Below, piece by piece: positions 21,069 through 60,932 of a stretch of 64,000 nucleotides of DNA. Location of the stretch: NCBI GenBank assembly GCA_963662405.2, contig CAXXKT010000003.1:499956-563955 (forward strand), read 5' to 3'. Position 1 is the stretch's first letter. Each line of letters begins with the position of its first letter. The position numbers and the translations under genes are program-made. The notes beneath the pieces were generated by a model. It had not been told where the DNA came from. It searched no databases and saw nothing but the letters and a program-made list of their open reading frames with translations. Origin of the DNA: Syntrophales bacterium. GTDB taxonomy: Bacteria; Desulfobacterota; Syntrophia; Syntrophales; UBA2210.

Positions 21069-21166
21069 GGAAGTGCCAAGGTCACTGGTGGGCCTCCCGG
21101 ACTTCAAATCCGGTGTGGGGCGCTAGAACCGTCCCGGGTGGGTTCGATTCCCATGCACTTCCGCCA
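21069..21166 (+). tRNA. selC: tRNA-Sec (anticodon UCA)
   Basis: 8-bp acceptor GGAAGTGC/GCACTTCC + G + CCA; anticodon arm CCGGA-CTTCAAA-TCCGG (TCA at 21104-21106); long variable arm GGGGCG/CGTCCC; T-arm GTGGG-TTCGATT-CCCAT. Confidence 0.97.
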
Positions 21167-46454: not shown

Positions 46455-48110
46455 ATGAAGCGACAAACCGTCAGTGGATCGGTTCACCGCATCGCGGCGA
46501 TTATAATCATCAGCGTGCTCCTCTCTGCTTGTGGGGGTGGGGGCGAGGAACACGCCGATGTAGAGATGCCGTCCGCTGATATCCCCGCCTACGGAGATAT
46601 TATTGTCGAGGGCTCAATCGGCGATGCATCGAATCTGATCCCCATCCTCTCTTCGGATAGTACCTCTCATGAGATTGCGTCCTTGGTTTTCAACGGTCTC
46701 GTGAAGTATGACCGGGACATGAAGGTGGTGGGTGATCTGGCGGAGTCGTGGGATATATCGGAGGACGGTCTCGAGATTACCTTCTACTTGAAAAAAGGGG
46801 TCCGGTGGCACGACGGGCACCCCTTTTCCGCCGAGGATGTCCTCTTCACCTACCGTCTGACCATCGACCCCAAGACACCGACCGCATACGCGGGAGACTT
46901 TTTGAGGGTAAAGGAGGTCGAGGTCCTCGATCCCCACACCATTCGCGTTACCTACCCCGAACCGTTCGCCCCGGCCCTGATGAGTTGGGGGGCCGCCGTT
47001 CTCCCCCGACACCTGTTGGAGGGGAAGGACATTACGCGGGTCCCTTCCGCCCGTCACCCGATCGGGACGGGACCGTACCTTTTCAAGGAGTGGAAGACCG
47101 GACAGAAGATCGTCCTCGTTTCCAACCCGGACTATTTCGAGGGGAGGCCCTATATCGACGGGTACATCATGCGGATCATCCCCGACACGGCCACCATGTT
47201 TCTGGAACTCCGCGCGAAGGGGATCGACCGGATGGGACTGACGCCCCTGCAGTACACCCGGCAGACGGAAAACAACCTGTTTCGGAATAACTTCAATAAA
47301 TACAAATATCTTTCATTCTCCTATTCCTATCTCGGCTACAACCTGGATCATCCCCTGTTTCGGGATCGGCGGGTCAGGCAGGCCATCAGCTACGCGATAA
47401 ACAAGGAGGAGATTGTCGAGGGGGTCTTGCTCGGCCTGGGGCAGGAGGCGATCGGCCCCTTCAAACCGGGGACATGGCCGTACAATCCCGATGTGAGGCG
47501 ATACCCTTATGATCCTGCCCGGGCAAGAGAACTCCTCGCCCGGGCGGGGTGGCAAGACTCGGACGGGGATGGTCTCCTGGATCGCGACGGCAGTCCCTTT
47601 GCATTCGAGATCATCACGAACCAGGGGAATGAAGTCAGGGCGAAATGTGCCGAGATCATCCAGCGACGGCTTGCCGATATCGGTATTACGGTCAAGATCA
47701 GGGTCATCGAATGGGCCGCCTTTATCAACGAATTTATCAATAAAAAGCGATTCGACGCGACGATCCTCGGGTGGACCATCACCCTTGATCCCGACCTGTA
47801 TGATGTGTGGCATTCGAGCAAGACGCGGCCCGGCGAGCTGAATTTTGTCTCTTTTAAAAACAATGAGGTGGATGAACTGCTGGAGAAGGGGCGGGGGACC
47901 TTCGACCGGAAGGAACGGAAACGGTGTTATGACCGGATCCAGGAGATCCTTGCCGAGGAGCAGCCCTATACCTTCCTGTATGTCCCGGACGCACTCCCCA
48001 TCATCGGCAGCCGGTTCCGGGGCATCGATCCCGCCCCCATCGGGATCGGCCATAACTTCATTCGATGGTATGTCCCGAAGGGTGAGCAACGATATGTGAT
48101 GACGCGGTAG
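46455..48110 (+). CDS. ABC transporter peptide-binding lipoprotein (family 5, AppA-like)
   Basis: LLSAC lipobox, GDLAESW, GVRWHDG.PFSAEDVLFT, PIGTGPY, VRQAISYAIN. Confidence 0.92.
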   Translation: MKRQTVSGSVHRIAAIIIISVLLSACGGGGEEHADVEMPSADIPAYGDIIVEGSIGDASNLIPILSSDSTSHEIASLVFNGLVKYDRDMKVVGDLAESWDISEDGLEITFYLKKGVRWHDGHPFSAEDVLFTYRLTIDPKTPTAYAGDFLRVKEVEVLDPHTIRVTYPEPFAPALMSWGAAVLPRHLLEGKDITRVPSARHPIGTGPYLFKEWKTGQKIVLVSNPDYFEGRPYIDGYIMRIIPDTATMFLELRAKGIDRMGLTPLQYTRQTENNLFRNNFNKYKYLSFSYSYLGYNLDHPLFRDRRVRQAISYAINKEEIVEGVLLGLGQEAIGPFKPGTWPYNPDVRRYPYDPARARELLARAGWQDSDGDGLLDRDGSPFAFEIITNQGNEVRAKCAEIIQRRLADIGITVKIRVIEWAAFINEFINKKRFDATILGWTITLDPDLYDVWHSSKTRPGELNFVSFKNNEVDELLEKGRGTFDRKERKRCYDRIQEILAEEQPYTFLYVPDALPIIGSRFRGIDPAPIGIGHNFIRWYVPKGEQRYVMTR

Positions 48111-48116
48111 GACCGG

Positions 48117-49538
48117 TTACTCAAATTGAAACGTTCCCTCCGTCAGGAGGGAAAGGCACACATCCACCACCGCGGAATCGTACAGTGTCCCCTTGTTGTT
48201 TGAGATTTCCTCGATGGCCTTGTCGAATCCCATGGCCGAACGGTACGGCCGATGGGACACCATCGCCTCGACGACATCGGCCACGGCGAGGATCTTTGCC
48301 CCGATGCACATCTTCTCTTCGTCGATACCTTTGGGATACCCTGAACCGTCCAGTCTCCCGTGGTGCTGGAGGATAATCTCCGCTATCGGCCAGGGGAATT
48401 GGATTTCCTTCAATATGCTGCTGCCGACCTCCGGGTGGGTCTTGATCAGATCCATCTCATTTATACTGAGGGGACCGGGTTTGTTCAGGATCTCTCCGGG
48501 GATCTGGACCTTGCCGACATCATGTATCAGCGCCGCCATCCGTATGCCGATCGCCTCTACCTCGGGAAGTTTCATTTCCCGGGAGATGGCGTCGGCAAGT
48601 TGTGCCACGCGACGCTGATGACCCGCGGTATAGGGGTCCCGTATCTCGACGGTAAATGCCAGTGTCCGCACGGTCTCTTCCAGCATATGCTGGAGGTTAT
48701 CGTAGCTCTCCTTCAGCTGTCGCTCCCGTTGCTCGTGCTCGGTAACATCGCGGGCGACCCCCCTGAATCCTACCGGATTCCCGGACGCATCCAGTATCAG
48801 GGAGGCGGACATATCATGGATCCGAATGCCCCCGTTTTTCCGTATCACCTCATACCCATTCATCTGTGCGGGGTTCCCCCCGGCGTGAATCTGCCTGAAT
48901 GTCTCAGAGAGCTGTTGTGCCGTTTCCGGGCTGGTGTACCGCCGGTTGCTCATCCCCAGGAGTTCTGCGGGTGAGTAACCGGTCATCCTGCACAGGGCGT
49001 CATTAAAAAAGGTGAAATTGCCCGCAAGGTCAAGCTCGAAGTACCCTTCCTCAATACTCTCGAGTATGTTCCGGTACCGTTCTTCGCTTTTTTCCAGAAC
49101 CTCCCGGTTTTCTTTTCGCTTGCTGATATCTCTGGCGATAGCGATAAAACCCGACTGTTGCCCGTTGCCATCGGTCAGGAAGCTGGTTTTAATCTCCGTC
49201 CACACCGTGGAGCCGTCCTTCCTGATCATCTCGATCTCTGCGGGGACGTTCCGTTCGGCGTCGCTCCGTTGCAAGCATTCTTTCATCCATTGACCCGTTT
49301 CGGCGAGAAAGGCGTCTAGAGATCCGGGCGCAATGATACGCTCCAGTCCCGAGCGACCGGTGTTATCAAAGACACTCATCAGTTCTGCCTCTGTGTACCC
49401 GAGAAGGTGTTCGACGGACGGATTTGCATAGATGAGTCTCAGTCTCATGTCCCAGACGGTAATCATATCCGGTACCGTCTCGGTTATGACCCGGTAGAGA
49501 TCGTCTTTTTTTGAGAGATTCCTGATCGTGTTTTTCAT
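48117..49538 (-). CDS. Two-PAS HD-GYP domain protein (putative c-di-GMP phosphodiesterase)
   Basis: Two PAS/PAC domains; RDPYTAGHQRRV, HDVGK, HHGRLDGSGYP, ADVVEAM.SHRPYR. Confidence 0.9.
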   Translation of the reverse strand: MKNTIRNLSKKDDLYRVITETVPDMITVWDMRLRLIYANPSVEHLLGYTEAELMSVFDNTGRSGLERIIAPGSLDAFLAETGQWMKECLQRSDAERNVPAEIEMIRKDGSTVWTEIKTSFLTDGNGQQSGFIAIARDISKRKENREVLEKSEERYRNILESIEEGYFELDLAGNFTFFNDALCRMTGYSPAELLGMSNRRYTSPETAQQLSETFRQIHAGGNPAQMNGYEVIRKNGGIRIHDMSASLILDASGNPVGFRGVARDVTEHEQRERQLKESYDNLQHMLEETVRTLAFTVEIRDPYTAGHQRRVAQLADAISREMKLPEVEAIGIRMAALIHDVGKVQIPGEILNKPGPLSINEMDLIKTHPEVGSSILKEIQFPWPIAEIILQHHGRLDGSGYPKGIDEEKMCIGAKILAVADVVEAMVSHRPYRSAMGFDKAIEEISNNKGTLYDSAVVDVCLSLLTEGTFQFE

Positions 49539-49588
49539 GGGTGACGGCCTTTTTCAGATGTCCCGGGTTCGATGCCCGGTCCATCCTG

Positions 49589-50980
49589 CTATGCTTCTGA
49601 TTTCAGGTTGTCCCGGAGGTACTCCTTGAACAGGGGATAGTCAGCGGGGAGGAGGGCCGGTTCGCCTCTTCGTTTGTCAATTCCTTTCATGCTGTCCGGC
49701 ATCTCAGGGGTGATGCCAAGGAGAGCTTCGATCTCATCCGGGAATTTTGCCGGATGCGCAGTCTCTATCGAAACGCAGAGGGGAGCATTACCGTACCGGT
49801 CAAGGTAGATCTCAAGCCCCCGCCATCCCACCGCCCCGTGGGGCTCCAGGATGACGCCGTATCGCTTGTAGGTGTCTTTGATACAGGTCCTCGTCTCATC
49901 ATCCGAGACGCTGACGGAGAAGATATTGCGGCGCATCGTCTCTCTATCGGGATAGCTGTGAACCTTTCCCGTTCTGTCCACGGTACCGCCGTACAGATCG
50001 AAAAAGCGGGCGAGGTTGCTCGGGTGTCCCACATTCATGGCGTTCGAGAGACATGCCAGCGAAGGAGACACCTTCTCATAGGTCCCCTCGTGGAGGAAGC
50101 GGGGGAACTCGTTATTTTCGTTGGTCGGCATGAGCAGTTTTTTGACGGGGAGTCCCATCCGCCGCGCATATTCGCAACCCAGGGCGTTGCCGAAATTTCC
50201 CGAAGGGACCGATACAACGATCTCTTCTCCCCTTTCCCGGAAGAGTTGAGCGTAGGCGTAGACGTAGTAGACCATCTGGGGGAGGATCCTGCCGAAATTG
50301 ATGGAATTTGCCGACGTGAAAGAAAGGGGGGCAAGATCGGGATCGGCGAAGGCCTCCTTGACCAGGTTCTGACAGTCGTCGAATTTTCCGTCGATGGAGA
50401 TCGCCCGGACATTGTCACCGATGGTGTCGAGCTGTTTCTTCTGCCGTTCGCTGACCTCTCTCCGAGGGTACAGGATATGGACATCGATTCCCTCGACTCC
50501 CTTGAATGCCTCGCCGACCGCGCTCCCCGTATCCCCGGAGGTCGCGACCAGGACGTTCAAACGCCGCTTCCGGTCGCGGAAATGCCCCATCAGGCGTGCC
50601 ATCATCCGTGCGGCAAAGTCCTTGAAGGATGCCGTCGGCCCCTGGTCGAGGCGCATGATGAAGGTGTGATCGGTGACCTGCTCCAGGGGAACGGAAAAGG
50701 GATATGAATCTTCGATGATTGTCCGGAGGGTCACGGTGTCAATCTCGGTACGTAGGAAGAACTCGGCGATCAACATCCCCGCCTCGGGATACGGTTTTCC
50801 CTTCAGCGAGACGATATCTTCGTAGGGTATCGTCGGTATCCGGTCCGGCATGAACAATCCCTCGTCCGGTGCCTGTCCTCGGAGGAGGGCTTCCTTGAAG
50901 GAGACAACTCCCGTGAAGGGAGTGATTCCCTTCTCGCCCCTCAGATTTCTGTTGGTGCTGTAGTAGCGTATCGCTTCCAT
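49589..50980 (-). CDS. thrC: Threonine synthase
   Basis: GPTASFKDF PLP-lysine motif, ATSGDTG, SANSINFGR, VPSGNFGN, ETAHPAKF. Confidence 0.92.
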   Translation of the reverse strand: MEAIRYYSTNRNLRGEKGITPFTGVVSFKEALLRGQAPDEGLFMPDRIPTIPYEDIVSLKGKPYPEAGMLIAEFFLRTEIDTVTLRTIIEDSYPFSVPLEQVTDHTFIMRLDQGPTASFKDFAARMMARLMGHFRDRKRRLNVLVATSGDTGSAVGEAFKGVEGIDVHILYPRREVSERQKKQLDTIGDNVRAISIDGKFDDCQNLVKEAFADPDLAPLSFTSANSINFGRILPQMVYYVYAYAQLFRERGEEIVVSVPSGNFGNALGCEYARRMGLPVKKLLMPTNENNEFPRFLHEGTYEKVSPSLACLSNAMNVGHPSNLARFFDLYGGTVDRTGKVHSYPDRETMRRNIFSVSVSDDETRTCIKDTYKRYGVILEPHGAVGWRGLEIYLDRYGNAPLCVSIETAHPAKFPDEIEALLGITPEMPDSMKGIDKRRGEPALLPADYPLFKEYLRDNLKSEA

Positions 50981-51027
50981 ACGTTTTGGTTCCCGTTCAA
51001 TATCGTGTATGTCGTTTCATGAGGACT

Positions 51028-51960
51028 TCAATGAGAATCGAGATATTCCGAACCCTTCACGGAACGCATGAACAATTCGTGGTGACGCATCAAGTTGAAT
51101 TGCTTCTTGTAGATCAAGTAGAAGTTTCTTTCAATCGTACAGCCGTCGACCGGTTCTTCTACGAGGAAACCGTTCGCCAGTTCCCGAGCCACGGCGCGGA
51201 ACGAAAGGATGGAGACCCCCAGACCGGCGATGACCGCCTCCTTGACGGCCTCGGAGCTTCCCAGCTCGGCGACGATATTAAACCGGGACAGCTGTTTGCT
51301 CATGTTACGCTGGAGGTACTCTTCAAGGACCGATCGGGTGGCGGAGCCGCGCTCTCTCATGATAAAGGGTTCCCGAGACAGGTCATCAATGGATACGGAT
51401 GATTCCGTGCTCCACCGATGTCCTTCAGGGATGACCAGGATCAGTCGATCTTTCCAGATCGCTTCGACGTGCAGCTTCCTGTCGGATACCTCCTTGCCGA
51501 TAAAGCCAACCTCCGCCCGGTTATCGAGAATGAGATCCACGGTTGCATCGCTGTCGTTCGTTTGAGCATAACAGCGGATGCGGGGATACATTGCATTGAA
51601 GGCCCTCAATACGTGCGGGAGGATATAGGTGGCGGGGATGGTGCTGGCGCTGATGAAGATACTGCCCGAATCGTCTTCCTGAGTCCGGGCGATCTTATCC
51701 TTCGCCTCATCCACCAGCTTGAATACACGGCGGGCGTATTCGTAGAGAATCCTTCCCTCCGGTGTCAGGGATATCCCCGAACTCTTGCGGTCGACCAGGA
51801 GGGTTCCGATTGTTTCTTCCAGGTTCTTTATGTGTTTCGTCAGGGAAGGTTGTGTCAGATACATCTTCTTGGCCGCCCGGCTGAAACCCTGCTCCTCGAC
51901 CAGCCTGATCAATGCCTCCATCTGCTGGAGGGTGATATTCTTGAATGTGTTGTTTTTCAT
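51028..51960 (-). CDS. LysR-family regulator (CysL-like, selenium-metabolism-associated), divergent from selD
   Basis: FSRAAKKMYLTQPSLT HTH; ASTIPATYILP, RERGSATR, GSSEAVKEAVIAGLG. Confidence 0.92.
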   Translation of the reverse strand: MKNNTFKNITLQQMEALIRLVEEQGFSRAAKKMYLTQPSLTKHIKNLEETIGTLLVDRKSSGISLTPEGRILYEYARRVFKLVDEAKDKIARTQEDDSGSIFISASTIPATYILPHVLRAFNAMYPRIRCYAQTNDSDATVDLILDNRAEVGFIGKEVSDRKLHVEAIWKDRLILVIPEGHRWSTESSVSIDDLSREPFIMRERGSATRSVLEEYLQRNMSKQLSRFNIVAELGSSEAVKEAVIAGLGVSILSFRAVARELANGFLVEEPVDGCTIERNFYLIYKKQFNLMRHHELFMRSVKGSEYLDSH

Positions 51961-51974
51961 GGGGATCGAATATC

Positions 51975-52048
51975 ATAAGAGGTGGCTATAATCAATCATG
52001 ATTCATAGCGACAATGAATTTGACACATTCAGTGAATTCAGATAGAAG
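51975..52048 (+). promoter_or_regulatory. selD promoter with two LysR-type boxes
   Basis: ATAAGAGGTGGCTAT (51975), perfect dyad ATTCAT-N7-ATGAAT (52001-52019), TTGACA (52020)-N17-TAGAAG. Confidence 0.75.
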
Positions 52049-52155
52049 GCAGGCATACTGTGCGTGACAGTAAGGATTGTGATTCTGTGAAGCGCCTTCC
52101 GACAAATCCTCATTGATGGTTCGTGAACCCGAGAGAGGAAAGAAAGGGGTCCGAC

Positions 52156-53212
52156 ATGGTGGAAGACAGGGAAAAGATCCGTCTGACGGAGACGGTGCAT
52201 GGTGCCGGGTGAGCCTGTAAGATAGGTCCGGGCGACCTGAATCAGGCATTATGCGGTCTTCCGCTTATATCCGATCCGAACCTGATCGCGGGAATCGAGA
52301 ATTCGGATGACGCCGGGGTCTATCGTCTGAATGATGACATGGCGATCATCCAGACCCTCGATTTTTTCACGCCCATCGTTGACGATCCGTACACCTTCGG
52401 CCAGGTGGCCGTGGCGAATTCCCTCTCCGATGTCTACGCCATGGGAGGCGTTCCGGTCACCGCGATGAATATCATCTGTTTTCCCATCAATACCATGGAG
52501 ATTTCCATTCTGAGAGAGATTCTCCTCGGGGGACTGGACAAGATGCGCGAGGCGGGTGTTCTCCTGGTCGGCGGTCACAGCGTCGAGGACAACGAATTGA
52601 AATACGGTCTTTCGGTCACCGGGGACGGTTCATCCCGATCGTGTTCTCCTCAACCGGGGTGCCCGGGCGGGAGACGTCTTGATCCTGACGAAACCCCTCG
52701 GGACGGGGATCATCAACACCGTCCTCAAGGGGAATCTGGCGAGCACCGAACTCGTTGAGAAATCCATCCGCTGTATGTCGCAGTTAAACAAGGCGGCGGC
52801 CGAACTGATGGCGACGCGTACCACGATCCATGCCTGCACCGACGTGACCGGTTTCGGCCTCATCGGTCATGCCGCCGAGATGATCGAGGGGAGCGACGTC
52901 GGCATGGTGATCCGTTCCTCAGCGGTTCCGGTCTTCCATGAGATCCGGGAATTCGTCGAGATGGGGATCATCCCGGGAGGGTTGAACCGGAACCGAAAGT
53001 ACCGGATGCCGATGGTGGATGTCCAATCTACCTGCCCGGGGTGGCTGGCCGATGTCTTCTTCGATCCCCAGACATCGGGGGGGCTCCTTATCTCTCTTGC
53101 TGCCGATGAGGCGGAGGCGCTGGTAATCGCGCTGCACGAGCAGGGAATTCCCGAGGCCGCCGTTATCGGTGAGGTTGCAGAGGCACCCGCAGGACGGATC
53201 GTTATTTCGTAG
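52156..53212 (+). CDS. selD: Selenide,water dikinase (selenophosphate synthetase), Sec-containing; one extra G at 52621-52624 as sequenced
   Basis: [17 protein letters not shown] (TGA at 52210-52212), [32 protein letters not shown]; after the +1 shift [32 protein letters not shown]; about 351 aa when corrected. Confidence 0.95.
52213..52247 (+). promoter_or_regulatory. Bacterial SECIS element of selD
   Basis: Upper stem AGGUC-CGGGC-GACCU starting 11 nt after the UGA; lower stem GCCUG/CAGGC. Confidence 0.8.
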
Positions 53213-53289
53213 TGGAAGCCTTCTTCAATCCATCGCACGGTTGCAGTGGAAGCGCCCGGAGCCTCTGCACAAAGCCATTATTGCAACCC

Positions 53290-53365
53290 ATCAACAAAAC
53301 CTATCTCCGCCACCCGTGTTATTCTGAATATGAATTTGATATAAAGCTAAGATTCAATATATAGT
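53290..53365 (+). promoter_or_regulatory. Second copy of the LysR-box promoter, before the CxCC small gene
   Basis: ATCAACAAAACCTAT (53290), TGTTAT-N7-ATGAAT (53317-53335), TTGATA (53336)-N18-TATAGT. Confidence 0.65.
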
Positions 53366-53416
53366 GCCTCATGCTATCAGATTGGCGAACACCAATGAAG
53401 AGGAGCCGACCAACCT

Positions 53417-53650
53417 ATGACCGATGATGCGTTCATACTCACTCCCGAAACATCCGTTTTGGATGTCGTATCCCGGTTCCGGCAAACTGAACGCGTTTTC
53501 AAGGAATACGACAAGATTGCCGGTGAGTGTATCTGTTGTCAGGCCCTCTTTGAACCGCTGGGAGATGTTGCACGGCGGTACGGTTTCGATCCCGATCAAC
53601 TGCTGTCCGATCTCGAAGCTGCTATCAATAACAGCAATCCCCCCTATTGA
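53417..53650 (+). CDS. Small Cys-rich protein (DUF1858 / ScdA-N-like redox domain) with a CxCC motif
   Basis: GAGGAG RBS; TPETSVLDVV...VF...ECICCQALFEPL..VA..YGFD...LLSDL. Confidence 0.75.
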   Translation: MTDDAFILTPETSVLDVVSRFRQTERVFKEYDKIAGECICCQALFEPLGDVARRYGFDPDQLLSDLEAAINNSNPPY

Positions 53651-53720
53651 TAAAGGATATTTCACCGCCAATATATATTCCTATTATGAATTTGACTTAT
53701 AGGATTAGTTGATTTAGAAA
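53646..53720 (+). promoter_or_regulatory. Third copy of the LysR-box promoter, before yedE
   Basis: ATTGATAAAGGATAT (53646), ATATAT-N7-ATGAAT (53673-53691), TTGACT (53692)-N17-TAGAAA. Confidence 0.7.
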
Positions 53721-53766
53721 AGTGTGGTTTTGCAAATCATATGCGAGTAATTGGAAAGGGGTATCT

Positions 53767-54858
53767 ATGCGAGTGAAAAATTTCTTTGCCAGTCGCTGGG
53801 GGATTATCGCCGTGGGGGTCGTGATCGGCATCCTTGCCGCCCTCCTGCAGAAACTGGGAAACCCGGGTAATATGGGGATCTGTGTGGCCTGTTTTGAGCG
53901 GGATATCGCCGGCGCCCTCGGTCTGCACCGCGCGGGGGTTGTCCAGTATATCCGTCCCGAGATTATCGGTTTTGTCCTGGGATCGCTCGGTGCCGCCTAT
54001 CTCTTCAGGGAATTTCGTCCCCGCCTCGGTTCCGCGCCTATTGTCCGTTTTGTCCTGGGTGTCTTTGCGATGATCGGGGCGCTTGTCTTTCTGGGGTGTC
54101 CCTGGCGTGCCGTGCTCCGTCTCGCCGGGGGGGACGGAAACGCCATCCTCGGTCTCCTGGGACTGATTTTCGGGATCTGGATCGGGACGCTCTTCTTCAG
54201 GAAGGGGTACAACCTGGGGCGGACCCAGGCGACGCATACGGCGGCGGGGTGGATCATGCCGCTCATCATGCTCGGCTTTCTGGCTCTTCTCCTGGCTTTC
54301 CCCCAGATTAACGGGGAGGCGAAGAGCGGTGTCCTCTTCTACAGCCTGAAGGGACCGGGAGCCATGCATGCCCCCCTCCTGATCTCTCTGGTGATCGGCC
54401 TCGCCGTTGGCTTCATCGCCCAGCGGAGCCGTTTCTGTACCATGGGGGCGATTCGTGACTTTGTCCTCTTCCGCCAGACCCATCTCCTCTTCGGGTTTAT
54501 CGCCCTGGTCGTCGCGGCCTTTGTGACGAACCTCATTGTCGGTCAGTTCCATCCCGGCTTTACGGGACAGCCCGTCGCCCATACCATGCATGTCTGGAAT
54601 TTTGCGGGGATGATGCTGGCCGGTCTGGCCTTCGCCCTCGCGGGCGGGTGTCCCGGGCGTCAACTGTTCCTTTCGGGCGAGGGTGACGGAGATGCCGCCG
54701 TCTTCGTGTTGGGAATGATCGTCGGGGCGGGATTCGCCCACAATTTCGGTCTGGCCAGTTCGCCGAAGGGGGTTGGGCCGTATGGCGTCGAGGCCGTGAT
54801 TATCGGCATGATCGTCTGTCTGTTCATCGGGTTCACGATGAGAAAACGCATTGTATAA
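53767..54858 (+). CDS. yedE: YeeE/YedE-family putative selenium transporter
   Basis: GNPGNMGICVACFERDIAGALGLH, FLGCPWR, RSRFC, GGCPGRQ; about 10 TM helices; next to selD. Confidence 0.92.
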   Translation: MRVKNFFASRWGIIAVGVVIGILAALLQKLGNPGNMGICVACFERDIAGALGLHRAGVVQYIRPEIIGFVLGSLGAAYLFREFRPRLGSAPIVRFVLGVFAMIGALVFLGCPWRAVLRLAGGDGNAILGLLGLIFGIWIGTLFFRKGYNLGRTQATHTAAGWIMPLIMLGFLALLLAFPQINGEAKSGVLFYSLKGPGAMHAPLLISLVIGLAVGFIAQRSRFCTMGAIRDFVLFRQTHLLFGFIALVVAAFVTNLIVGQFHPGFTGQPVAHTMHVWNFAGMMLAGLAFALAGGCPGRQLFLSGEGDGDAAVFVLGMIVGAGFAHNFGLASSPKGVGPYGVEAVIIGMIVCLFIGFTMRKRIV

Positions 54859-54871
54859 TAAGGAGTACGAT

Positions 54872-55090
54872 ATGAGTACACAGGTTGATGCACGGGGTCT
54901 GTCCTGTCCCCAGCCGGTCCTGATGACCATCGATACGATCAAGGCCGGGAAGGCGGACGAAATAGAGGTGTTGGTGGATACGGAGACATCAAAGGAAAAC
55001 GTTTCCCGCGCCGCCGAAAATCAGGGATGGACGGTGGCGAATGTTACAGAAAGAGATGGTGTTTTCAGCATCACGATCACCAAGGCGTAA
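54872..55090 (+). CDS. SirA/TusA/YedF-family S/Se carrier
   Basis: VDARGLSCPQPV motif; AAGGAG RBS. Confidence 0.92.
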   Translation: MSTQVDARGLSCPQPVLMTIDTIKAGKADEIEVLVDTETSKENVSRAAENQGWTVANVTERDGVFSITITKA

Positions 55091-55093
55091 GAC

Positions 55094-55651
55094 GTGTCCC
55101 TTTTCGGTATTTTCACAAGAAAGAAAGAAGAGGAATCGCCGGGGAATAACGGCAACGCCGACCGCGGGATCATGATCTTCGAGCAAACCGGCGAGGTCAT
55201 CCAGGCGGAAGACATTCTCAAGAAGGAAGGGTGGGAGGTCCGCGTTATGGGCCCTCCCCCCGAGGTCCGAAGCGGCTGCGACCTGGTCATCGAGTTTCCC
55301 CTTATTGAAGAGTTGAATATCCTCAGGACCCTTGAAGAGAAGGGTGTTATTCCTCTCCAGGTGGTTCCCGTCACGGGGTCCCTCCTGCAGCCGGTCGACC
55401 TGTTCCATGTCAAGGACTTCGGCGCCTATACCATGATCCGGGCGGCTAACATGAAACTGACCGTTGAGAAGGAAACAGGAATGATCGTGAATGTTTCAGG
55501 TGGGGGATGCCCAGATGTTCCTTACCTTGCCTGTGAGATGGTGGGTAGGTCTCTCGATACGGCCCCCAGCCCGCGTGCGATCGGTCATACCCTGTGCGGA
55601 TACGCGTTGCAGCTTGCGTACGAGGAGGCGAGACGCCGATGCTCGGAATAG
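55094..55651 (+). CDS. DUF3343-domain protein with an extra Cys-containing C-terminal domain
   Basis: F..T.EVIQAE..LK..G..VRVMGPP.EVRSGC.LVI (DUF3343 pattern); C-terminal GGGCPD...HTLCG. Confidence 0.8.
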   Translation: MSLFGIFTRKKEEESPGNNGNADRGIMIFEQTGEVIQAEDILKKEGWEVRVMGPPPEVRSGCDLVIEFPLIEELNILRTLEEKGVIPLQVVPVTGSLLQPVDLFHVKDFGAYTMIRAANMKLTVEKETGMIVNVSGGGCPDVPYLACEMVGRSLDTAPSPRAIGHTLCGYALQLAYEEARRRCSE

Positions 55652-56514
55652 CCGGAACAGTACCCCTCGAAGAGATCCCTCTCCTCGTGGGCGGAGTGGC
55701 GATGGATGGCGATTCCCTCCGTATCGAAGGGAGGTGCGTCCCCGCGGACCGGGGGACGGCGGCCCTGATCGGTGCGGCCGTGAAGACCACGGAGGTGCTC
55801 GGCACACCGCCCCCCGTTGCATATATCGCCGGTGACGTCGGACGGGGGGTGGGGAGCAGAAACCTCTACAAGCATCTGGTTGATACCTTTGTCGAATCCG
55901 CCTTTCATACCGTCACGTTTCACTACCTGCAGCCGATTGTCCACTGGCATAACCGCCTGCAACAGGTCATCCATGATATGGAGCAGAGGCCCCTCCTGAT
56001 TGCCGATGCCGGGTTCATGTACGTGGCGAAGATGAGCGGACATGCCCCGATGTATGATCTTTTCACTCCGGATATGGGTGAACTGGCATTCCTGGCGGAT
56101 GAGACGGCGCCTCATCCCTTCTACACCCGGGGGTTCATCCTCCATGATGAGAACCGGGTGCCGGATCTGATCAACCGTGCATACGAACACAACAACGCGG
56201 CTCGCCTCCTCGTGGTTAAAGGGAAAACGGATTATCTCGCCGACCGGGGGGGGATACGCTGCGAGGTGGCGAATCCTTCCGAGGAGGTGATGGAGGCGAT
56301 CGGGGGGACCGGGGATACGCTGGCCGGGATCCTCTCAGCGCTGATCTCGTCAGGGATGGAGATGGAACGGGCCGCGTCTGTTGCGATGAAGGCGAACCGT
56401 CTCGCCGGTTCCTATGCGCGGCCGACACCGGCGACACAGATTATCGATATTATCCATCACATACCGAAGGCCCTGGAAGATGTCCTCAAGGAGGAGAACG
56501 GACACTCCGGTTGA
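55639..56514 (+). CDS. Ribokinase-superfamily protein (NnrD/carbohydrate kinase-like) of unknown substrate
   Basis: IADAG, FTPDMGEL, VVKG, GGTGDTLAG anion hole; overlaps the upstream gene and has a GAGGAGG RBS. Confidence 0.82.
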   Translation: MLGIAGTVPLEEIPLLVGGVAMDGDSLRIEGRCVPADRGTAALIGAAVKTTEVLGTPPPVAYIAGDVGRGVGSRNLYKHLVDTFVESAFHTVTFHYLQPIVHWHNRLQQVIHDMEQRPLLIADAGFMYVAKMSGHAPMYDLFTPDMGELAFLADETAPHPFYTRGFILHDENRVPDLINRAYEHNNAARLLVVKGKTDYLADRGGIRCEVANPSEEVMEAIGGTGDTLAGILSALISSGMEMERAASVAMKANRLAGSYARPTPATQIIDIIHHIPKALEDVLKEENGHSG

Positions 56515-56899
56515 TCCAATCGCCTCATCCAATTGCTTTCTTTCTGATATCGGGACGATAATCCCGTTCGATAAAAAGCCTCGGAAGCCGCTCTCCACCG
56601 AACGGTGCGGAAACCGTGTTTCTCTCCTGTGTAAGCGCATCGCTGGCACGTTGGTATCGATGGGGGAGGACATCTTCCCGCCCAGGGTCGATTCATCGAA
56701 ATCGACGCAATTCCCCCGGAAATCGTACGCATAGACAAACTCAAGAATGTGCGCCCGGTAGGAACGGATTCTGCTCGGAGAAGCGATTCCCTCCCCTGTT
56801 CGCCCCCTTCAGTCGATCTCCCTTTTGGTTTTACTCGAATGACCGCACAGATCGGTTCTGTCTCGATGAAGATTTCGTGAAGAGAAGGACGGATCTGGT

Positions 56900-56914
56900 T
56901 GGCATGGAAATTGT
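56900..56914 (+). promoter_or_regulatory. Possible sigma54-like promoter (non-consensus -12)
   Basis: TGGCAT-GGAAA-TTGT upstream of the multi-PAS activator. Confidence 0.35.
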
Positions 56915-57041
56915 ATTAACTGGGCACGGGACACGTCGGGGTTGATAGTGAAGAAAGATGAATCCCGTATCTTCCGAAGAAGGGAAAAGGATCAAAAAGC
57001 GGTAACTACTGAGAGATATAGCAAGTAAGAGTCCTTTTTGA

Positions 57042-60000
57042 TTGAAAGAAAGCATGGGAACGTTACGGTCAATAGAGAAAGAAAGCGGGATACCCCCGTC
57101 AAAATCCAGTCGTCTGAATAATCATACGATCTTCGATATCCTTCGATATATAGTTGATTTTATTCCGGATGCTGTCTTTGCCGTCGATTCGATGAAGGTG
57201 ATTGTCGCTTGGAACCGGGCCATGGAACACATGACCGAGATCCCACGGGAAACGGTCATCGGCCAGGACCTGCAGACACTTGCTGAGACACTATACGGAA
57301 GACCGCGCCATACTCTCATCGATCTTCTCCTCGAAGACGATCCGAAAAATAAACAACGATATCATATCATACAAGAAGACGATTCAATTTCAGGGGAATC
57401 CTTTGTCCCCTGGGTCTATAGCGATACAGGAGCCCATTTATGGGCGAAGGCGTCTCTCTTGCGGGACATCTCGGGTTGTGTCATCGGGGCGGTTGAAACC
57501 ATTCGTGACGTAACTGAATGGAAACAGGCGAAGACCTCGCTGTGTGACAGCGAGGAAAAACACCAGAAACTGATCGCGATGTTGCGCGATGTCGTTTATA
57601 CGACGGACCGTGACGGAAAATTGACGTATCTCAGCCCAGGATTCGAGGAAGTGACCGGCTATTCCCTCGACGATGTAATCGGTCGTCCCTTTACGGATTT
57701 TTTACTCCCTCAGTATCGAGAGGAGGCACTGCGCCTGTTTAGCGGTCTCGTCAAGCGAGGTGAAACGAGTTCCTTTGATGCCGCCATAAGAGGGAAGGTT
57801 GGCAACGTTATACCGGTGGAGTTGCGGGGAGTGCCCCTCTTTGATCGTGACGGAGAGAACATCGGCAGGATTGGCATTGCACGCGATATTACGGATCGAA
57901 AACGAGCCGAAAAGGCACTGGAAGAGAGTGAGGCAAACTATCGACAACTTTTTGAGAATGCCCCTGCGGGAATATATCGGGTCGATTTCAAGACAGGGAA
58001 ATTCTTAAAGGCGAATGACGTTTTTCGGGAATACCTTTGCTGCAGCAAGGAAGAGCTGAACTCTCTGAGCCCCTACGATATACTGACGGAAGAGAGCAGG
58101 GGACTTTTCCTGGAGCGTGTGGAGAAAATGGCTCGGGGTGAAGATGTCCCCGAGATCGTAGAATATGAAATCGTCAATAAACGCGGCAGGCGATACTGGG
58201 TCCATCTGCACAGTAATAATATTTACGATGCGGAAGGGGCTGTGGTCGCTTCAGATGTCATTGCCCATGATATCACCGAACGGAAAGAGACCGAGAGGGC
58301 CCTCAGGGAGAGCGAAGAGCGCTACCGGATGATCGTCGAGAATATGCATGAGATTATCTGGACCATGGATCTGGATTTCAATTACACCTACCGCAGCCCG
58401 GCCAATATCCGCATAACCGGCTACAGCCCGGAAGAGATAACCACCCTTCCCGTGAGCGATCAGATCGTTCCGGAATCGTATGCCCTGGTGGAAAAAATCC
58501 TGGCGGAGGAACTGGAGAACGAGTTCGGACAGGGTCCCGTCGACCTTCACCGGTCGAGAACACTGGAAATAGAGGTTTACCACAAGGACGGGGGAACGGT
58601 CTGGATTGAGGTGACAGGAACATTTATCCGTGATGACGGCGGTCAGCCTGTCGAAATCCTCCTGACCGCCAGAGATATTACCGAACGCAAACGGCTCGAG
58701 GGTGAACTGGAAGAGAGTGAACGACTCTACCGGACGATCTTTGAGACAACCGGGACCGCTACGATGATCATCGAGGAAGATGCTACCATATCTCTGGTCA
58801 ACAAAGAGTTTGAGCGCCTTTCCGGATATGCCAAGGAAGAGGTCGAAGGCAAAAAACGGTGGATGGATTTCGTGTATGAACCGGATCTTGACCGGATGCT
58901 GCACGAAAATCGGAAGAGAAAGGTGAGGGATCCTTCGGTCTTTCGAAGTTACGAATTCCGAGCCCTGCACAAAGGAGGGACGATCAGAGATGCCTTATTG
59001 AATGTTTCGATGATCCCCGATTCAGGACGGATGGTTGCCTCGCTTCACGATATCACCGAGCAAAAACAGTCGGAGGTCTTGACCAGAAGCCAGCGCGATC
59101 TTGCGGAGCGGCTCAATATGCTGACGCGGTTGGACGATGTCTTGCGGACCTGCGCGGAAACGGCGATGCATATATCTTGGATGGAGTGCGGAGGCATATA
59201 CCTGGTCGATGAAGAAACGGGAGGATTGCATCTCATCTATCACGAAGGATTATCGGACGAGTTCGTCGAACAGATATCGTATTACCCTCCCGATTCTGAC
59301 AATGTCCGATTGGTCGAACAGGGCGGTCCGGTTTATTGCCGGTACGGGGATCTGGAGGCTGATCTTTCTCCGTTGGATGTGGATGAACATCTCACGTCCG
59401 TTGCCGTTGTTCCCATCCACTTCGAGGGCCGGCCCATCGCGTGCCTCAATGTCGCATCACGTACCATTGAAACGATTCCTGATTTTACACGGACCGCCCT
59501 CGAGTCGATCTCCTCGCAGGTGGGGGTAGCCGTCGCCCGGGTCAAGGCCGAAGAGGCTTCGAGGAAGAGCGAAGAGATGTTCCGCGCCCTCGCGGAAAAT
59601 TCCTCTGATGTCATAATGAGATTTGATCGCCAGTTCCGTCATCTGTACGCAAGTTCCGGAGTTGAAAAAGAAACAGGAATCCCGTCCAGGGAATTTATCG
59701 GTAAGACCCACCATGAACTCGGATTTCCCGAAGATCTGGTCAATATGGCGGAAGCGGCTATACAGAAGGTCTTCGAGACCGGGCAGCCGAACCGTGTAGA
59801 ATTCATGCTTCCCAGTGCGATATGGTTGGATTGGCTGCTGGTTCCGGAATTTGCTGGGAACGGCGGCGTCAAGGCGGTCATGACCTCATCGCGTGACATT
59901 ACCGGCAGGAAACTCAGGGAAATCCGTGAGAAGGAAGAAAAAGACCGTCTGGCGCGGGAGAACGTACATCTCAGGTCATCGATGAAGGACCGCTGGCGTT

Positions 60001-60932
60001 TCGGTGGAATCATCGGAAAGAGCGGCGTCATGCAGGAGGTGTACGACCTGATGGAGAAGGCGGCCGCCTCGGATGCGAGTGTCATTATCTATGGCGAATC
60101 CGGGACAGGCAAGGAACTGGTGGCCAGGGCCATCCATGATATGAGCGCCAGGAAAAAAGGAGAGTTTGTCCCGGTCAACTGCGGAGCAATCCCGGAAAAT
60201 CTGCTGGAGAGTGAGTTTTTTGGACACAGAAAGGGGGCGTATACCGGGGCCCATATCGATAAACACGGGTATCTGGACCTGGCAGATGGAGGGAGCCTGT
60301 TTCTTGACGAGATCGGGGAACTTGGTTTGAACATCCAGGTAAAGCTCCTCAGGGCACTCGAAGGGGGAGGGTACACTCCCCTCGGGAGCGCACGTGAAAA
60401 ACATTCTGATTTTCGTATTATCGCCGCAACGAACAGGGATCTCGCCGATCATGTCAAGCGGGGAGTCATGAGGGAGGATTTTTTCTACCGGATACACATC
60501 GTGCCGATCACCCTCCCCCCCCTCAGAGACCGCCGAGAAGACATTCCTCTCCTTATTGAACATTTTTTGAAACAAAACGCTTCGGAAAACGGAACGATTA
60601 AACTGTCCGGCAAGGCAATGGAAACCCTGTACTACCATGACTGGCCGGGTAATGTCAGGGAGTTGCAGAACGTCCTTCATCGATATCTGACGATCCGGAG
60701 TCTCGATTTCATGTCTCCCTCCTCCAATCGCTCACCGATCGTTACGGGACCTGGGTGGGACGACGGGGATGATGCCGATATCGATCTGGCGACCGCCCTT
60801 GAGAGGCACGAAAAAGAGATTATTGTACGGGTGCTTGAAGCGAAGAAATGGCATCGCATAAGGGCGGCGGAGGCCTTGGGAATCTCCCGGCATACCCTTT
60901 TCCGTAAGATGAAAAATTATGAATTACTCTAG
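57042..60932 (+). CDS. Sigma54-dependent activator with 5 PAS - GAF - PAS - AAA+ - Fis HTH
   Basis: Six PAS/PAC units ending RDxT/HDIT, a GAF segment, GESGTGKE, NCGAIPENLLESEFFGH..GAYTGA, WPGNVREL, AAEALGISR. Confidence 0.92.
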   Translation: MKESMGTLRSIEKESGIPPSKSSRLNNHTIFDILRYIVDFIPDAVFAVDSMKVIVAWNRAMEHMTEIPRETVIGQDLQTLAETLYGRPRHTLIDLLLEDDPKNKQRYHIIQEDDSISGESFVPWVYSDTGAHLWAKASLLRDISGCVIGAVETIRDVTEWKQAKTSLCDSEEKHQKLIAMLRDVVYTTDRDGKLTYLSPGFEEVTGYSLDDVIGRPFTDFLLPQYREEALRLFSGLVKRGETSSFDAAIRGKVGNVIPVELRGVPLFDRDGENIGRIGIARDITDRKRAEKALEESEANYRQLFENAPAGIYRVDFKTGKFLKANDVFREYLCCSKEELNSLSPYDILTEESRGLFLERVEKMARGEDVPEIVEYEIVNKRGRRYWVHLHSNNIYDAEGAVVASDVIAHDITERKETERALRESEERYRMIVENMHEIIWTMDLDFNYTYRSPANIRITGYSPEEITTLPVSDQIVPESYALVEKILAEELENEFGQGPVDLHRSRTLEIEVYHKDGGTVWIEVTGTFIRDDGGQPVEILLTARDITERKRLEGELEESERLYRTIFETTGTATMIIEEDATISLVNKEFERLSGYAKEEVEGKKRWMDFVYEPDLDRMLHENRKRKVRDPSVFRSYEFRALHKGGTIRDALLNVSMIPDSGRMVASLHDITEQKQSEVLTRSQRDLAERLNMLTRLDDVLRTCAETAMHISWMECGGIYLVDEETGGLHLIYHEGLSDEFVEQISYYPPDSDNVRLVEQGGPVYCRYGDLEADLSPLDVDEHLTSVAVVPIHFEGRPIACLNVASRTIETIPDFTRTALESISSQVGVAVARVKAEEASRKSEEMFRALAENSSDVIMRFDRQFRHLYASSGVEKETGIPSREFIGKTHHELGFPEDLVNMAEAAIQKVFETGQPNRVEFMLPSAIWLDWLLVPEFAGNGGVKAVMTSSRDITGRKLREIREKEEKDRLARENVHLRSSMKDRWRFGGIIGKSGVMQEVYDLMEKAAASDASVIIYGESGTGKELVARAIHDMSARKKGEFVPVNCGAIPENLLESEFFGHRKGAYTGAHIDKHGYLDLADGGSLFLDEIGELGLNIQVKLLRALEGGGYTPLGSAREKHSDFRIIAATNRDLADHVKRGVMREDFFYRIHIVPITLPPLRDRREDIPLLIEHFLKQNASENGTIKLSGKAMETLYYHDWPGNVRELQNVLHRYLTIRSLDFMSPSSNRSPIVTGPGWDDGDDADIDLATALERHEKEIIVRVLEAKKWHRIRAAEALGISRHTLFRKMKNYELL

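Follow-up and report, generated by a model that had tools for sequence, protein, structure and literature searches.

A fixed pair of a cysteine carrier and a kinase-like enzyme in a probable selenium uptake and hand-over cluster of a Syntrophales bacterium

A stretch of 64,000 nt from a Syntrophales bacterium (assembly GCA_963662405.2, contig CAXXKT010000003.1, positions 499,956–563,955 of the forward strand; hereafter the window) contains at positions 51028–56514 a gene cluster that is probably a regulon for selenium uptake and hand-over, likely feeding the selenophosphate synthetase SelD. The cluster comprises, in order, a divergent LysR gene, selD, a gene for a small CxxC protein, yedE, tusA, a gene for a DUF3343-type carrier and a gene for a ribokinase-fold enzyme. 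Between a putative importer and SelD it thus places a fixed module of two proteins, one a cysteine carrier and the other an enzyme of the kinase fold whose catalytic motif is intact, and this pair likely performs a still undescribed nucleotide-dependent step in the hand-over of selenium to SelD. About one in four genomes sampled from a large phylum of anaerobes contained the module. According to a 2026 review (PMC13188914), the form of selenium used by SelD in vivo and the donor system are incompletely elucidated; the module makes this donor question testable on a system of two small, soluble proteins in which three cysteines and one aspartate are specified. Relatives of the enzyme are widely annotated as 'sugar kinase' or 'NAD(P)H-hydrate dehydratase', which the module corrects, and the predicted selenium regulator is provided with a concrete candidate DNA box.

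Gene identities were taken from the list of open reading frames (ORFs) and from family scans (Pfam, and NCBIfam/TIGR with curated cut-offs). All seven genes named in an earlier reading made from the sequence without database searches (the sequence-only reading) were present and spaced as described there, with gaps of 13 bp between yedE and tusA and 3 bp between tusA and the carrier gene, and an overlap of 13 bp between the carrier and enzyme genes. The link to selenium drawn in that reading was upheld, as LysR and YedE both pass curated selenium-specific cut-offs and selD is a neighbour of the kinase-like gene (within 8 kb) at 17 of the 60 loci compared. The LysR protein scored 287.3 bits with NF040786 (cut-off 250; next family 168.7), and YedE scored 496.9 bits with TIGR04112 (cut-off 200), whereas thiosulfate transporter models gave only 24–35 bits with YedE, far below their cut-offs (NF052577, 34.8). 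These matches suggest that the cargo would be selenium rather than sulfur.

The distribution of the module was surveyed within one phylum, using 401 genomes drawn evenly (340 of high quality; 254 genera). The enzyme was found in 103 genomes (92 of the high-quality ones), representing 74 genera, the C-domain of the carrier also in 103, and both proteins in 102; the two exceptions were one match at a contig start and one partial match. YedE (E ≤ 1e-40) was found in 163 genomes, in 159 of them above the cut-off, including 88 of the 103 enzyme-bearing ones. For gene context, the enzyme gene was fetched together with flanks of about 8 kb from 60 of the 103 genomes, picked down the enzyme table ranked by E value from the top to 1.3e-76; some matches within this range, mostly near contig starts, were passed over, and the other 43 genomes lie outside the context set. 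Genes in these loci were called by tblastn with the window proteins and from the longest ORFs. The order YedE-TusA-carrier-enzyme was kept in 55 to 60 of the 60 loci (Table 1). A comparison set consisted of 20 of the 75 YedE-bearing, enzyme-free genomes, picked from the top of the YedE table; a short TusA gene followed yedE in 18 of these 20 loci, and the carrier or the enzyme was found in none. Since most of the kinase-less loci have YedE-TusA and none has the carrier or the enzyme, YedE-TusA is the core and the carrier-enzyme pair an add-on module.

The two members of the pair also occur as single proteins. All five scanned representatives of 514–588 aa consist of an N-terminal Se_S_carrier and a C-terminal Carb_kinase domain, and in the two that were compared the whole carrier, including both Cys motifs, is present at 52–54% identity and followed by a linker. 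In addition, in 2 of the 60 loci (L042, 371 aa; L047, 365 aa) the enzyme ORF continues in frame into a CxxC domain; these look like natural fusions, an assembly artefact being possible. The idea of the sequence-only reading that import, Cys relay and enzyme form one module is strengthened by the conserved gene order, by the fusion of carrier and enzyme in some proteins and by the predicted binding of the pair (see below). In one locus (L088, genome G158), the transporter beside TusA, carrier and enzyme is 31% identical to the window YedE and falls short of E 1e-40 with TIGR04112, an indication that the pair can accompany a more distant YedE/YeeE-type channel.

The enzyme is a divergent member of the NnrD-like ribokinase-fold proteins, with 38.5 bits for PF01256 (gathering score 27) and 37.8 bits for TIGR00196 (cut-off 129.85), the latter marking it as a superfamily member only. 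It had been called an orphan, a description that does not hold: it belongs to a large family, with 4916 of 8000 scored candidates at E ≤ 0.001, and the best 120 relatives share 59–100% identity over proteins of about 285–295 residues. The relatives carry source names such as 'sugar kinase', 'NAD(P)H-hydrate dehydratase' and 'hypothetical protein'. Since a search of 1.84 billion representative proteins reached 319 representative clusters at E ≤ 0.001 (67 at E ≤ 1e-30), the family is nonetheless compact, small and separate. Its alignment (28 members, down to 35% identity) contains 18 invariant residues, including H95-Y96, D123-A124-G125, P144-D145, K194-G195, D198, E219, G222-G223-T224-G225-D226 and R254. 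The structural model (predicted local distance difference test, pLDDT, 93.7; predicted template modelling score, pTM, 0.93) has a ribokinase-like fold and best matches the NnrD domain of TM0922 (Z 20.5, root mean square deviation (rmsd) 3.1 over 228 residues, 18–19% identity), followed by pyridoxal kinase (Z 19.9) and then ThiD and ribokinase; Foldseek TM-scores were 0.5–0.6. By sequence, the best solved relatives were ThiM (E 3.1e-07) and TM0922, the GGSGD of the latter aligning with GGTGD of the enzyme. The GGxGD motif presumably holds the catalytic Asp (anion hole) of the NnrD superfamily. As a canonical Nnr (185.6 bits) is encoded elsewhere in the genome, the cluster enzyme is not the housekeeping repair enzyme. 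Thus, it shares the ribokinase-like fold and the GGxGD motif with the C-terminal domain of NnrD/YjeF (PDB 2ax3, 3rph, 1kyh), but differs in its low identity, in a score far below the TIGR00196 cut-off, in a structural match that lies within about 1 Z of that to pyridoxal kinase, and in its partner, which is not NnrE but a Cys carrier predicted to fill the substrate cleft.

The carrier matches PF11823 with 77.5 bits (cut-off 25) over residues 25–91, and this DUF3343 domain is followed by a Cys-bearing extension of about 90 residues. Three cysteines are invariant in 29 carrier sequences, namely C62 in the DUF3343 domain, C139 in SGGGCPDVP and C168 in TLCxYAL, and a fourth near the C terminus is frequent. 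Of the two domains, the C-domain shows the higher conservation in the tblastn table. The carrier model (pLDDT 87.6) shows a four-stranded sheet and then helices; Foldseek against the PDB returned no match to the carrier at E ≤ 0.001, and NCBIfam contained no family for it. For DUF8182 the local Pfam copy gave no hit, and the Atlas clusters with PF26554 and PF11823 at 0.81–0.84 are a lead only.

Carrier and enzyme are predicted to bind each other. With both alignments, three runs of complex prediction gave interaction scores derived from aligned errors (ipSAE) of 0.85, 0.88 and 0.85, while the best of three controls reached 0.00; at least 68% of contacts are common to the runs, and the pLDDT of the partner is at least 75. 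Of 157 solved complexes, 116 attained the mark used, as did 2 of 215 mismatched pairs, counts that hold roughly here. The predicted interface contains 9 of the 18 enzyme invariants (G39, Y96, A124, G125, D145, E219 and G222-T224) and lies beside D226; on the carrier side it contains 20 of 33 invariants, among them D63, V132-P143 with C139, C168 and Y170. The Cys loops of the carrier are placed in the cleft where the relatives of the enzyme bind their small substrates, which suggests that the enzyme may work on a carrier-bound species, its substrate being the Cys-bound chalcogen of the carrier rather than a free small molecule.

The cluster could then operate as follows. A selenium species likely enters through the YedE channel, and the TusA-like protein would accept the selenium on its Cys. 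The three-cysteine DUF3343 carrier would take it over from TusA in Cys-bound form and present it, on C139 or C168, in the active-site cleft of the enzyme, which would spend ATP or ADP to phosphorylate or otherwise activate it. For reductive release, the second Cys of the carrier and the CxxC protein could serve as thiol partners, and the released selenium would pass to SelD. This particular chemistry, i.e. nucleotide-driven activation of carrier-bound selenium followed by reductive release, is offered tentatively and may well be wrong in its details. A bolder version, in our view quite improbable, is that the pair constitutes a second, SelD-independent selenium-activating enzyme, in which perselenide on the GGGC loop would be phosphorylated by the ribokinase-fold subunit; the second Cys would free a Se-P species, so that selenophosphate would arise, with the same slight chance, from Se(0) and not from free selenide, and the CxxC protein would reset the carrier. 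If true, such a route would solve the restart of selenocysteine (Sec) synthesis after selenium starvation in organisms in which the sole SelD is a selenoprotein itself.

Several alternative roles of the pair were considered. Activation by ATP followed by attack of a chalcogen is a common logic, and the pair might use it to make or salvage a small selenium metabolite, the enzyme phosphorylating a hydroxyl of a free small molecule and the carrier perselenide displacing the phosphate to form a C-Se bond; this corresponds to the second option of the sequence-only reading. All characterised relatives of the fold use small molecules (NnrD, ThiM, ThiD and PdxK; Z 18–20.5), and among solved structures ThiM is the best match by sequence. 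However, the Cys loops of the carrier occupy the cleft in the predicted complex, Sec synthesis provides a plain sink in the genome, where no other known consumer was found, and the recurrent neighbour is selD and not a biosynthetic gene, no further enzyme being conserved beside the pair in more than 7 of the 60 loci; we therefore regard this role as unlikely. It is extremely unlikely that the last gene is merely a second NAD(P)HX dehydratase unrelated to selenium. Its PF01256 score above the gathering score and the name 'NAD(P)H-hydrate dehydratase' or 'sugar kinase' of its relatives would fit such an assignment, but TIGR00196 falls far below its cut-off, the canonical Nnr is encoded elsewhere, and the protein belongs to a small separate family, is accompanied by the carrier domain in 102 of 103 genomes and in some proteins forms a single chain with it.

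The pair could also be a scaffold or gate, in which an IscU-like domain would use the three Cys, H165 and D141 to bind a metal, a selenium species or an Fe-S cluster, and the kinase-fold protein, whether or not it binds a nucleotide, would do no more than cap or release the bound species. Invariance of GGTGD with its Asp, of K194-G195 and of D198 over the 28 sequences argues for catalysis instead, and the IscU matches of the carrier C-domain that favour a scaffold (1q48, Z 5.8, rmsd 3.0 over 79 residues; 4eb5_C, Z 5.5) lie below Z 8, where they may reflect merely a common arrangement. Also in its favour are the Cys-Pro-Asp and His-x-x-Cys motifs of the carrier, which we take to resemble the ligand motifs of IscU, and the 75 genomes in which YedE-TusA systems run without the pair; on balance a scaffold is quite unlikely. 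A relay for sulfur (thiosulfate or persulfide, similar to YeeE-YeeD) that lies beside selD by chance or through shared regulation seems very unlikely, since YedE exceeds the cut-off of the selenium equivalog more than twofold and stays far below those of the thiosulfate models, selD is adjacent in 17 of the 60 loci, which represent many families of the phylum, the LysR protein belongs to the selenium subfamily, and selD and yedE have one box in common (see below). What speaks for sulfur is the weak match of YedE to NF052577, the function of TusA and DsrE relatives as sulfur carriers, and the sulfur role that Lin et al. (2015; PMC5322559) leave open for DUF3343.

Other observations weigh against a selenium hand-over by the pair, or at least limit its support. 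The complex was predicted from alignments made for this analysis, so that the calibration counts given above apply to it roughly; its score expresses the confidence of the model and is no measurement. A wide structural search with the carrier C-domain (residues 106–185) gave weak matches throughout (all Z < 8, best 5.9), which besides IscU included dimerisation domains of pyridine nucleotide-disulfide and persulfide reductases and which give a lead rather than assign a fold. No Cys is invariant in the 28 enzyme sequences, and the enzyme may depend on a nucleotide, putatively ATP or ADP, as its invariant GGTGD motif and its fold suggest. YedE was not found at E ≤ 1e-40 in 15 of the 103 enzyme-bearing genomes, some of the matches lying at contig ends, and since 75 of the 163 YedE-bearing genomes lack the carrier-enzyme pair, the pair is dispensable for the core system. 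The sequence-only reading had asked whether such cassettes are common in genomes without selD; they are not, as 101 of the 103 enzyme-bearing genomes have selD (tables compared by eye) and the other two are 84% and 80% complete, but this profiling has little power because selD is nearly universal in the phylum (372 of 401 genomes). In the window, the hairpin after the Sec codon of selD (-18.8 kcal/mol, z -1.29) was equalled in folding by 23 of 200 shuffles and gave no support for a selenocysteine insertion sequence (SECIS), and a search of positions 48000–60000 with Rfam (E ≤ 1) detected no curated RNA element. Finally, Lin et al. (2015; PMC5322559) found no selenium-specific subfamily of DUF3343, and sulfur is therefore a possible cargo of this domain.

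The proposed recipient of the selenium is encoded by an intact gene. In selD, an in-frame TGA (52210–52212) lies within the loop HGAG-U-ACK; a Sec or Cys in an N-terminal Gly-rich loop followed by Lys is what we take to be the SelD motif, and nearly all selD matches listed for the phylum contain one such TGA each. The call of a Sec-type SelD made in the sequence-only reading was therefore right, although a frameshift in the window had been missed. TIGR00476 (cut-off 125) matched the gene in two halves, with 209.5 bits for the N half (profile positions 1–151) and 163.1 bits for the C half (153–310). The N half ends with GLSVTG and the C half (TVHPDRVL...) resumes one base on, at a four-G run (52620–52623) in which an extra G at 52621 causes a +1 shift. 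This base was omitted in the contigs of all four public runs compared over 52100–53300 (X1 to X4). X1 and X2 come from one sample, which may be the source of the assembly itself, and in each a single record spans the region and is otherwise identical; X3 and X4 are marine sediment metagenomes, each with one short record that has 2 or 3 other differing letters and the same deletion. Since the contigs of all four runs lack the extra base, the frameshift is an assembly error and selD is an intact Sec-type gene. A true pseudogene and programmed frameshifting were both considered and rejected, given these four runs and the intact selA, selB and tRNA-Sec genes. No second selD copy was found in the three-contig, 3.8-Mb genome, a third match of 33.7 bits being another protein of the aminoimidazole ribonucleotide (AIR) synthase type.

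The remaining genes for Sec synthesis lie outside the cluster. The genome encodes selA (606.6 bits) and selB (363.3 bits), the latter about 45 kb before the start of the window on the same contig, and a tRNA-Sec gene is present in the window itself. In the genome search, no match was found for selU, yqeB or yqeC, and none above the cut-off for SenB. Hence the statement that the known consumers of selenophosphate are absent is true of the cluster but not of the genome, in which Sec synthesis is the only known use of selenophosphate that was found and is sufficient for a selenium supply cluster. As selA, selB and tRNA-Sec provide a sufficient sink, the unknown selenium metabolite postulated earlier is not needed. 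In the only other sampled genome of the same genus (G149; 1.8 Mb compared with 3.8 Mb, completeness given as 100), selD, YedE, the carrier domain and the kinase-like gene were not found at the thresholds used, and the whole selenium trait may vary within the genus.

Three copies of the 10-mer ATGAATTTGA are present in the window, all on the plus strand and confined to the fronts of selD, the CxxC gene and yedE; 0.19 copies were expected, and none of 100 shuffles reached three. The aligned flanks read TAT-TC-N-ATGAATTTGAC/T-TA-AG, with a -35-like TTGAC/T overlapping the box. A promoter scan returned 3 sites compared with a shuffle mean of 3.1, i.e. no excess, one of them overlapping box 2. Outside the genome itself, exact copies were found in 3 of 116 fetched loci: 1) in L037, between LysR and selD and again 72 nt before yedE; 2) in L006, 91 nt before yedE and again just after selD; and 3) in L042, as a single copy on the minus strand. 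The box is a candidate operator to which the LysR protein may bind.

The TusA-like protein scored 71.1 bits with PF01206 (cut-off 28.6) and has the conserved Cys in ARGLSCPQP. With the YedF model TIGR03527 it gave 57.5 bits (cut-off 110) over profile positions 1–68 of 194, corresponding to the N-terminal domain only. Nine related loci contain, after selD, a full-length YedF of 197 aa (TusA plus DsrE; PF01206 77.4 bits, PF02635 31 bits), situated about 1.9 kb after the kinase-like gene (L089, L090, L092 and six others), and some cassettes have both a short TusA and YedF. The CxxC protein gave 20.2 bits with PF08984 (cut-off 32.2) and 29.6 bits with TIGR03980, the prismane-associated redox disulfide family (cut-off 44.95). 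In its family (24 sequences) G-x-C-x-x-C-x-x-L-F is kept at 90% or more, with C38 and C41 conserved; the protein had been described as a 'CxCC small protein', and while it is present, its motif is CxxC, the middle Cys varying among the 24 members. The protein may have a thiol-disulfide role and may re-reduce the carrier.

Parts of the cluster resemble known systems. In YeeE-YeeD (TsuA-TsuB), a YeeE/YedE channel is directly followed by a small TusA-like protein, as in 18 of the 20 kinase-less loci; YeeE-YeeD is reportedly a thiosulfate uptake pair, i.e. a sulfur system, with no DUF3343 carrier, kinase-fold enzyme or selD link. The Cys of SGGGC139PD, predicted to lie beside a nucleotide-dependent active site, resembles the Gly-rich Sec/Cys loop of SelD and the transfer of persulfide in the IscS-IscU system. 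Unlike SelD, the pair has no sequence relation to the AIR-synthase fold and carries loop and active site on two proteins, and the match of the carrier C-domain to IscU is weak (Z 5.8). According to Lin et al. (2015, Genome Biol Evol; PMC5322559), YedE, YedF, DUF3343 and LysR_Se are candidate selenium genes. The cluster shares with that set the same families by selD, with YedE as putative importer, TusA-like and DUF3343 proteins as putative carriers, and LysR; it differs in that YedF is reduced to its TusA domain, DUF3343 has an extra domain with two Cys, and a kinase-fold protein is a fixed partner. A term search of that text did not find the kinase-fold partner, and a literature search, with subscription journals and supplements outside its scope, found no paper describing the carrier-enzyme pair.

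Table 1. Features of the cluster and of the window, with their occurrence around the kinase-like gene in 60 related loci
Feature	Position	Strand	Family models	Remarks	Occurrence in the 60 loci
tRNA-Sec	21069–21166	+		anticodon tca; within the window, about 30 kb upstream of the selenium genes	
LysR_Sec_metab / LysR_Se regulator	51028–51960	-	NF040786, PF00126, PF03466		at ≥50% identity, 1/60
Box 1 ATGAATTTGA	52014–52023	+		142 nt before selD start; overlaps -35-like TTGACA	
selD, Sec-type selenophosphate synthetase	52156–53212	+	TIGR00476	divergent from LysR, 195 bp apart	within 8 kb of the kinase-like gene, 17/60; directly downstream, 9
Box 2 ATGAATTTGA	53330–53339	+		87 nt before CxxC gene; overlaps promoter-like TTGATA-18-TATAGT	
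CxxC protein	53417–53650	+	PF08984, TIGR03980 (both sub-threshold)	77 aa; DUF1858-like; ECICCQ	23/60; directly downstream of the kinase-like gene, 21
Box 3 ATGAATTTGA	53686–53695	+		81 nt before yedE	
YedE-family putative selenium transporter	53767–54858	+	TIGR04112		adjacent, 55/60; anywhere in the locus, 57/60
TusA/SirA-like protein	54872–55090	+	PF01206	72 aa; Cys-Pro-x-Pro motif	adjacent, 56/60
Carrier, Se_S_carrier/DUF3343 plus Cys-bearing C-domain	55094–55651	+	PF11823	185 aa	C-domain directly upstream of the enzyme, 60/60; DUF3343 domain adjacent, 59/60
Divergent NnrD-like ribokinase-fold enzyme	55639–56514	+	PF01256	291 aa	

The cluster is flanked by genes at 48117–50980 (-) and 57042–60932 (+) whose products, judged from their translations, resemble a signalling protein with PAS/HD domains, a threonine synthase and an activator of the sigma-54 type with several PAS domains (1296 aa); at the clustering level used, none of these recurs beside the cassette in the 60 related loci. 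Two other proteins, which are not part of the window cluster, recur 1–3 kb downstream of the kinase-like gene in 6–7 of the 60 loci: one similar to the D-component of 2-hydroxyglutaryl-CoA dehydratase (PF06050, 422.7 bits) and an activase-type ATPase of the BcrAD_BadFG family (PF01869, 172.2 bits), with ORFs such as L041:6097–7377 (-) and L043:2322–3236 (-).

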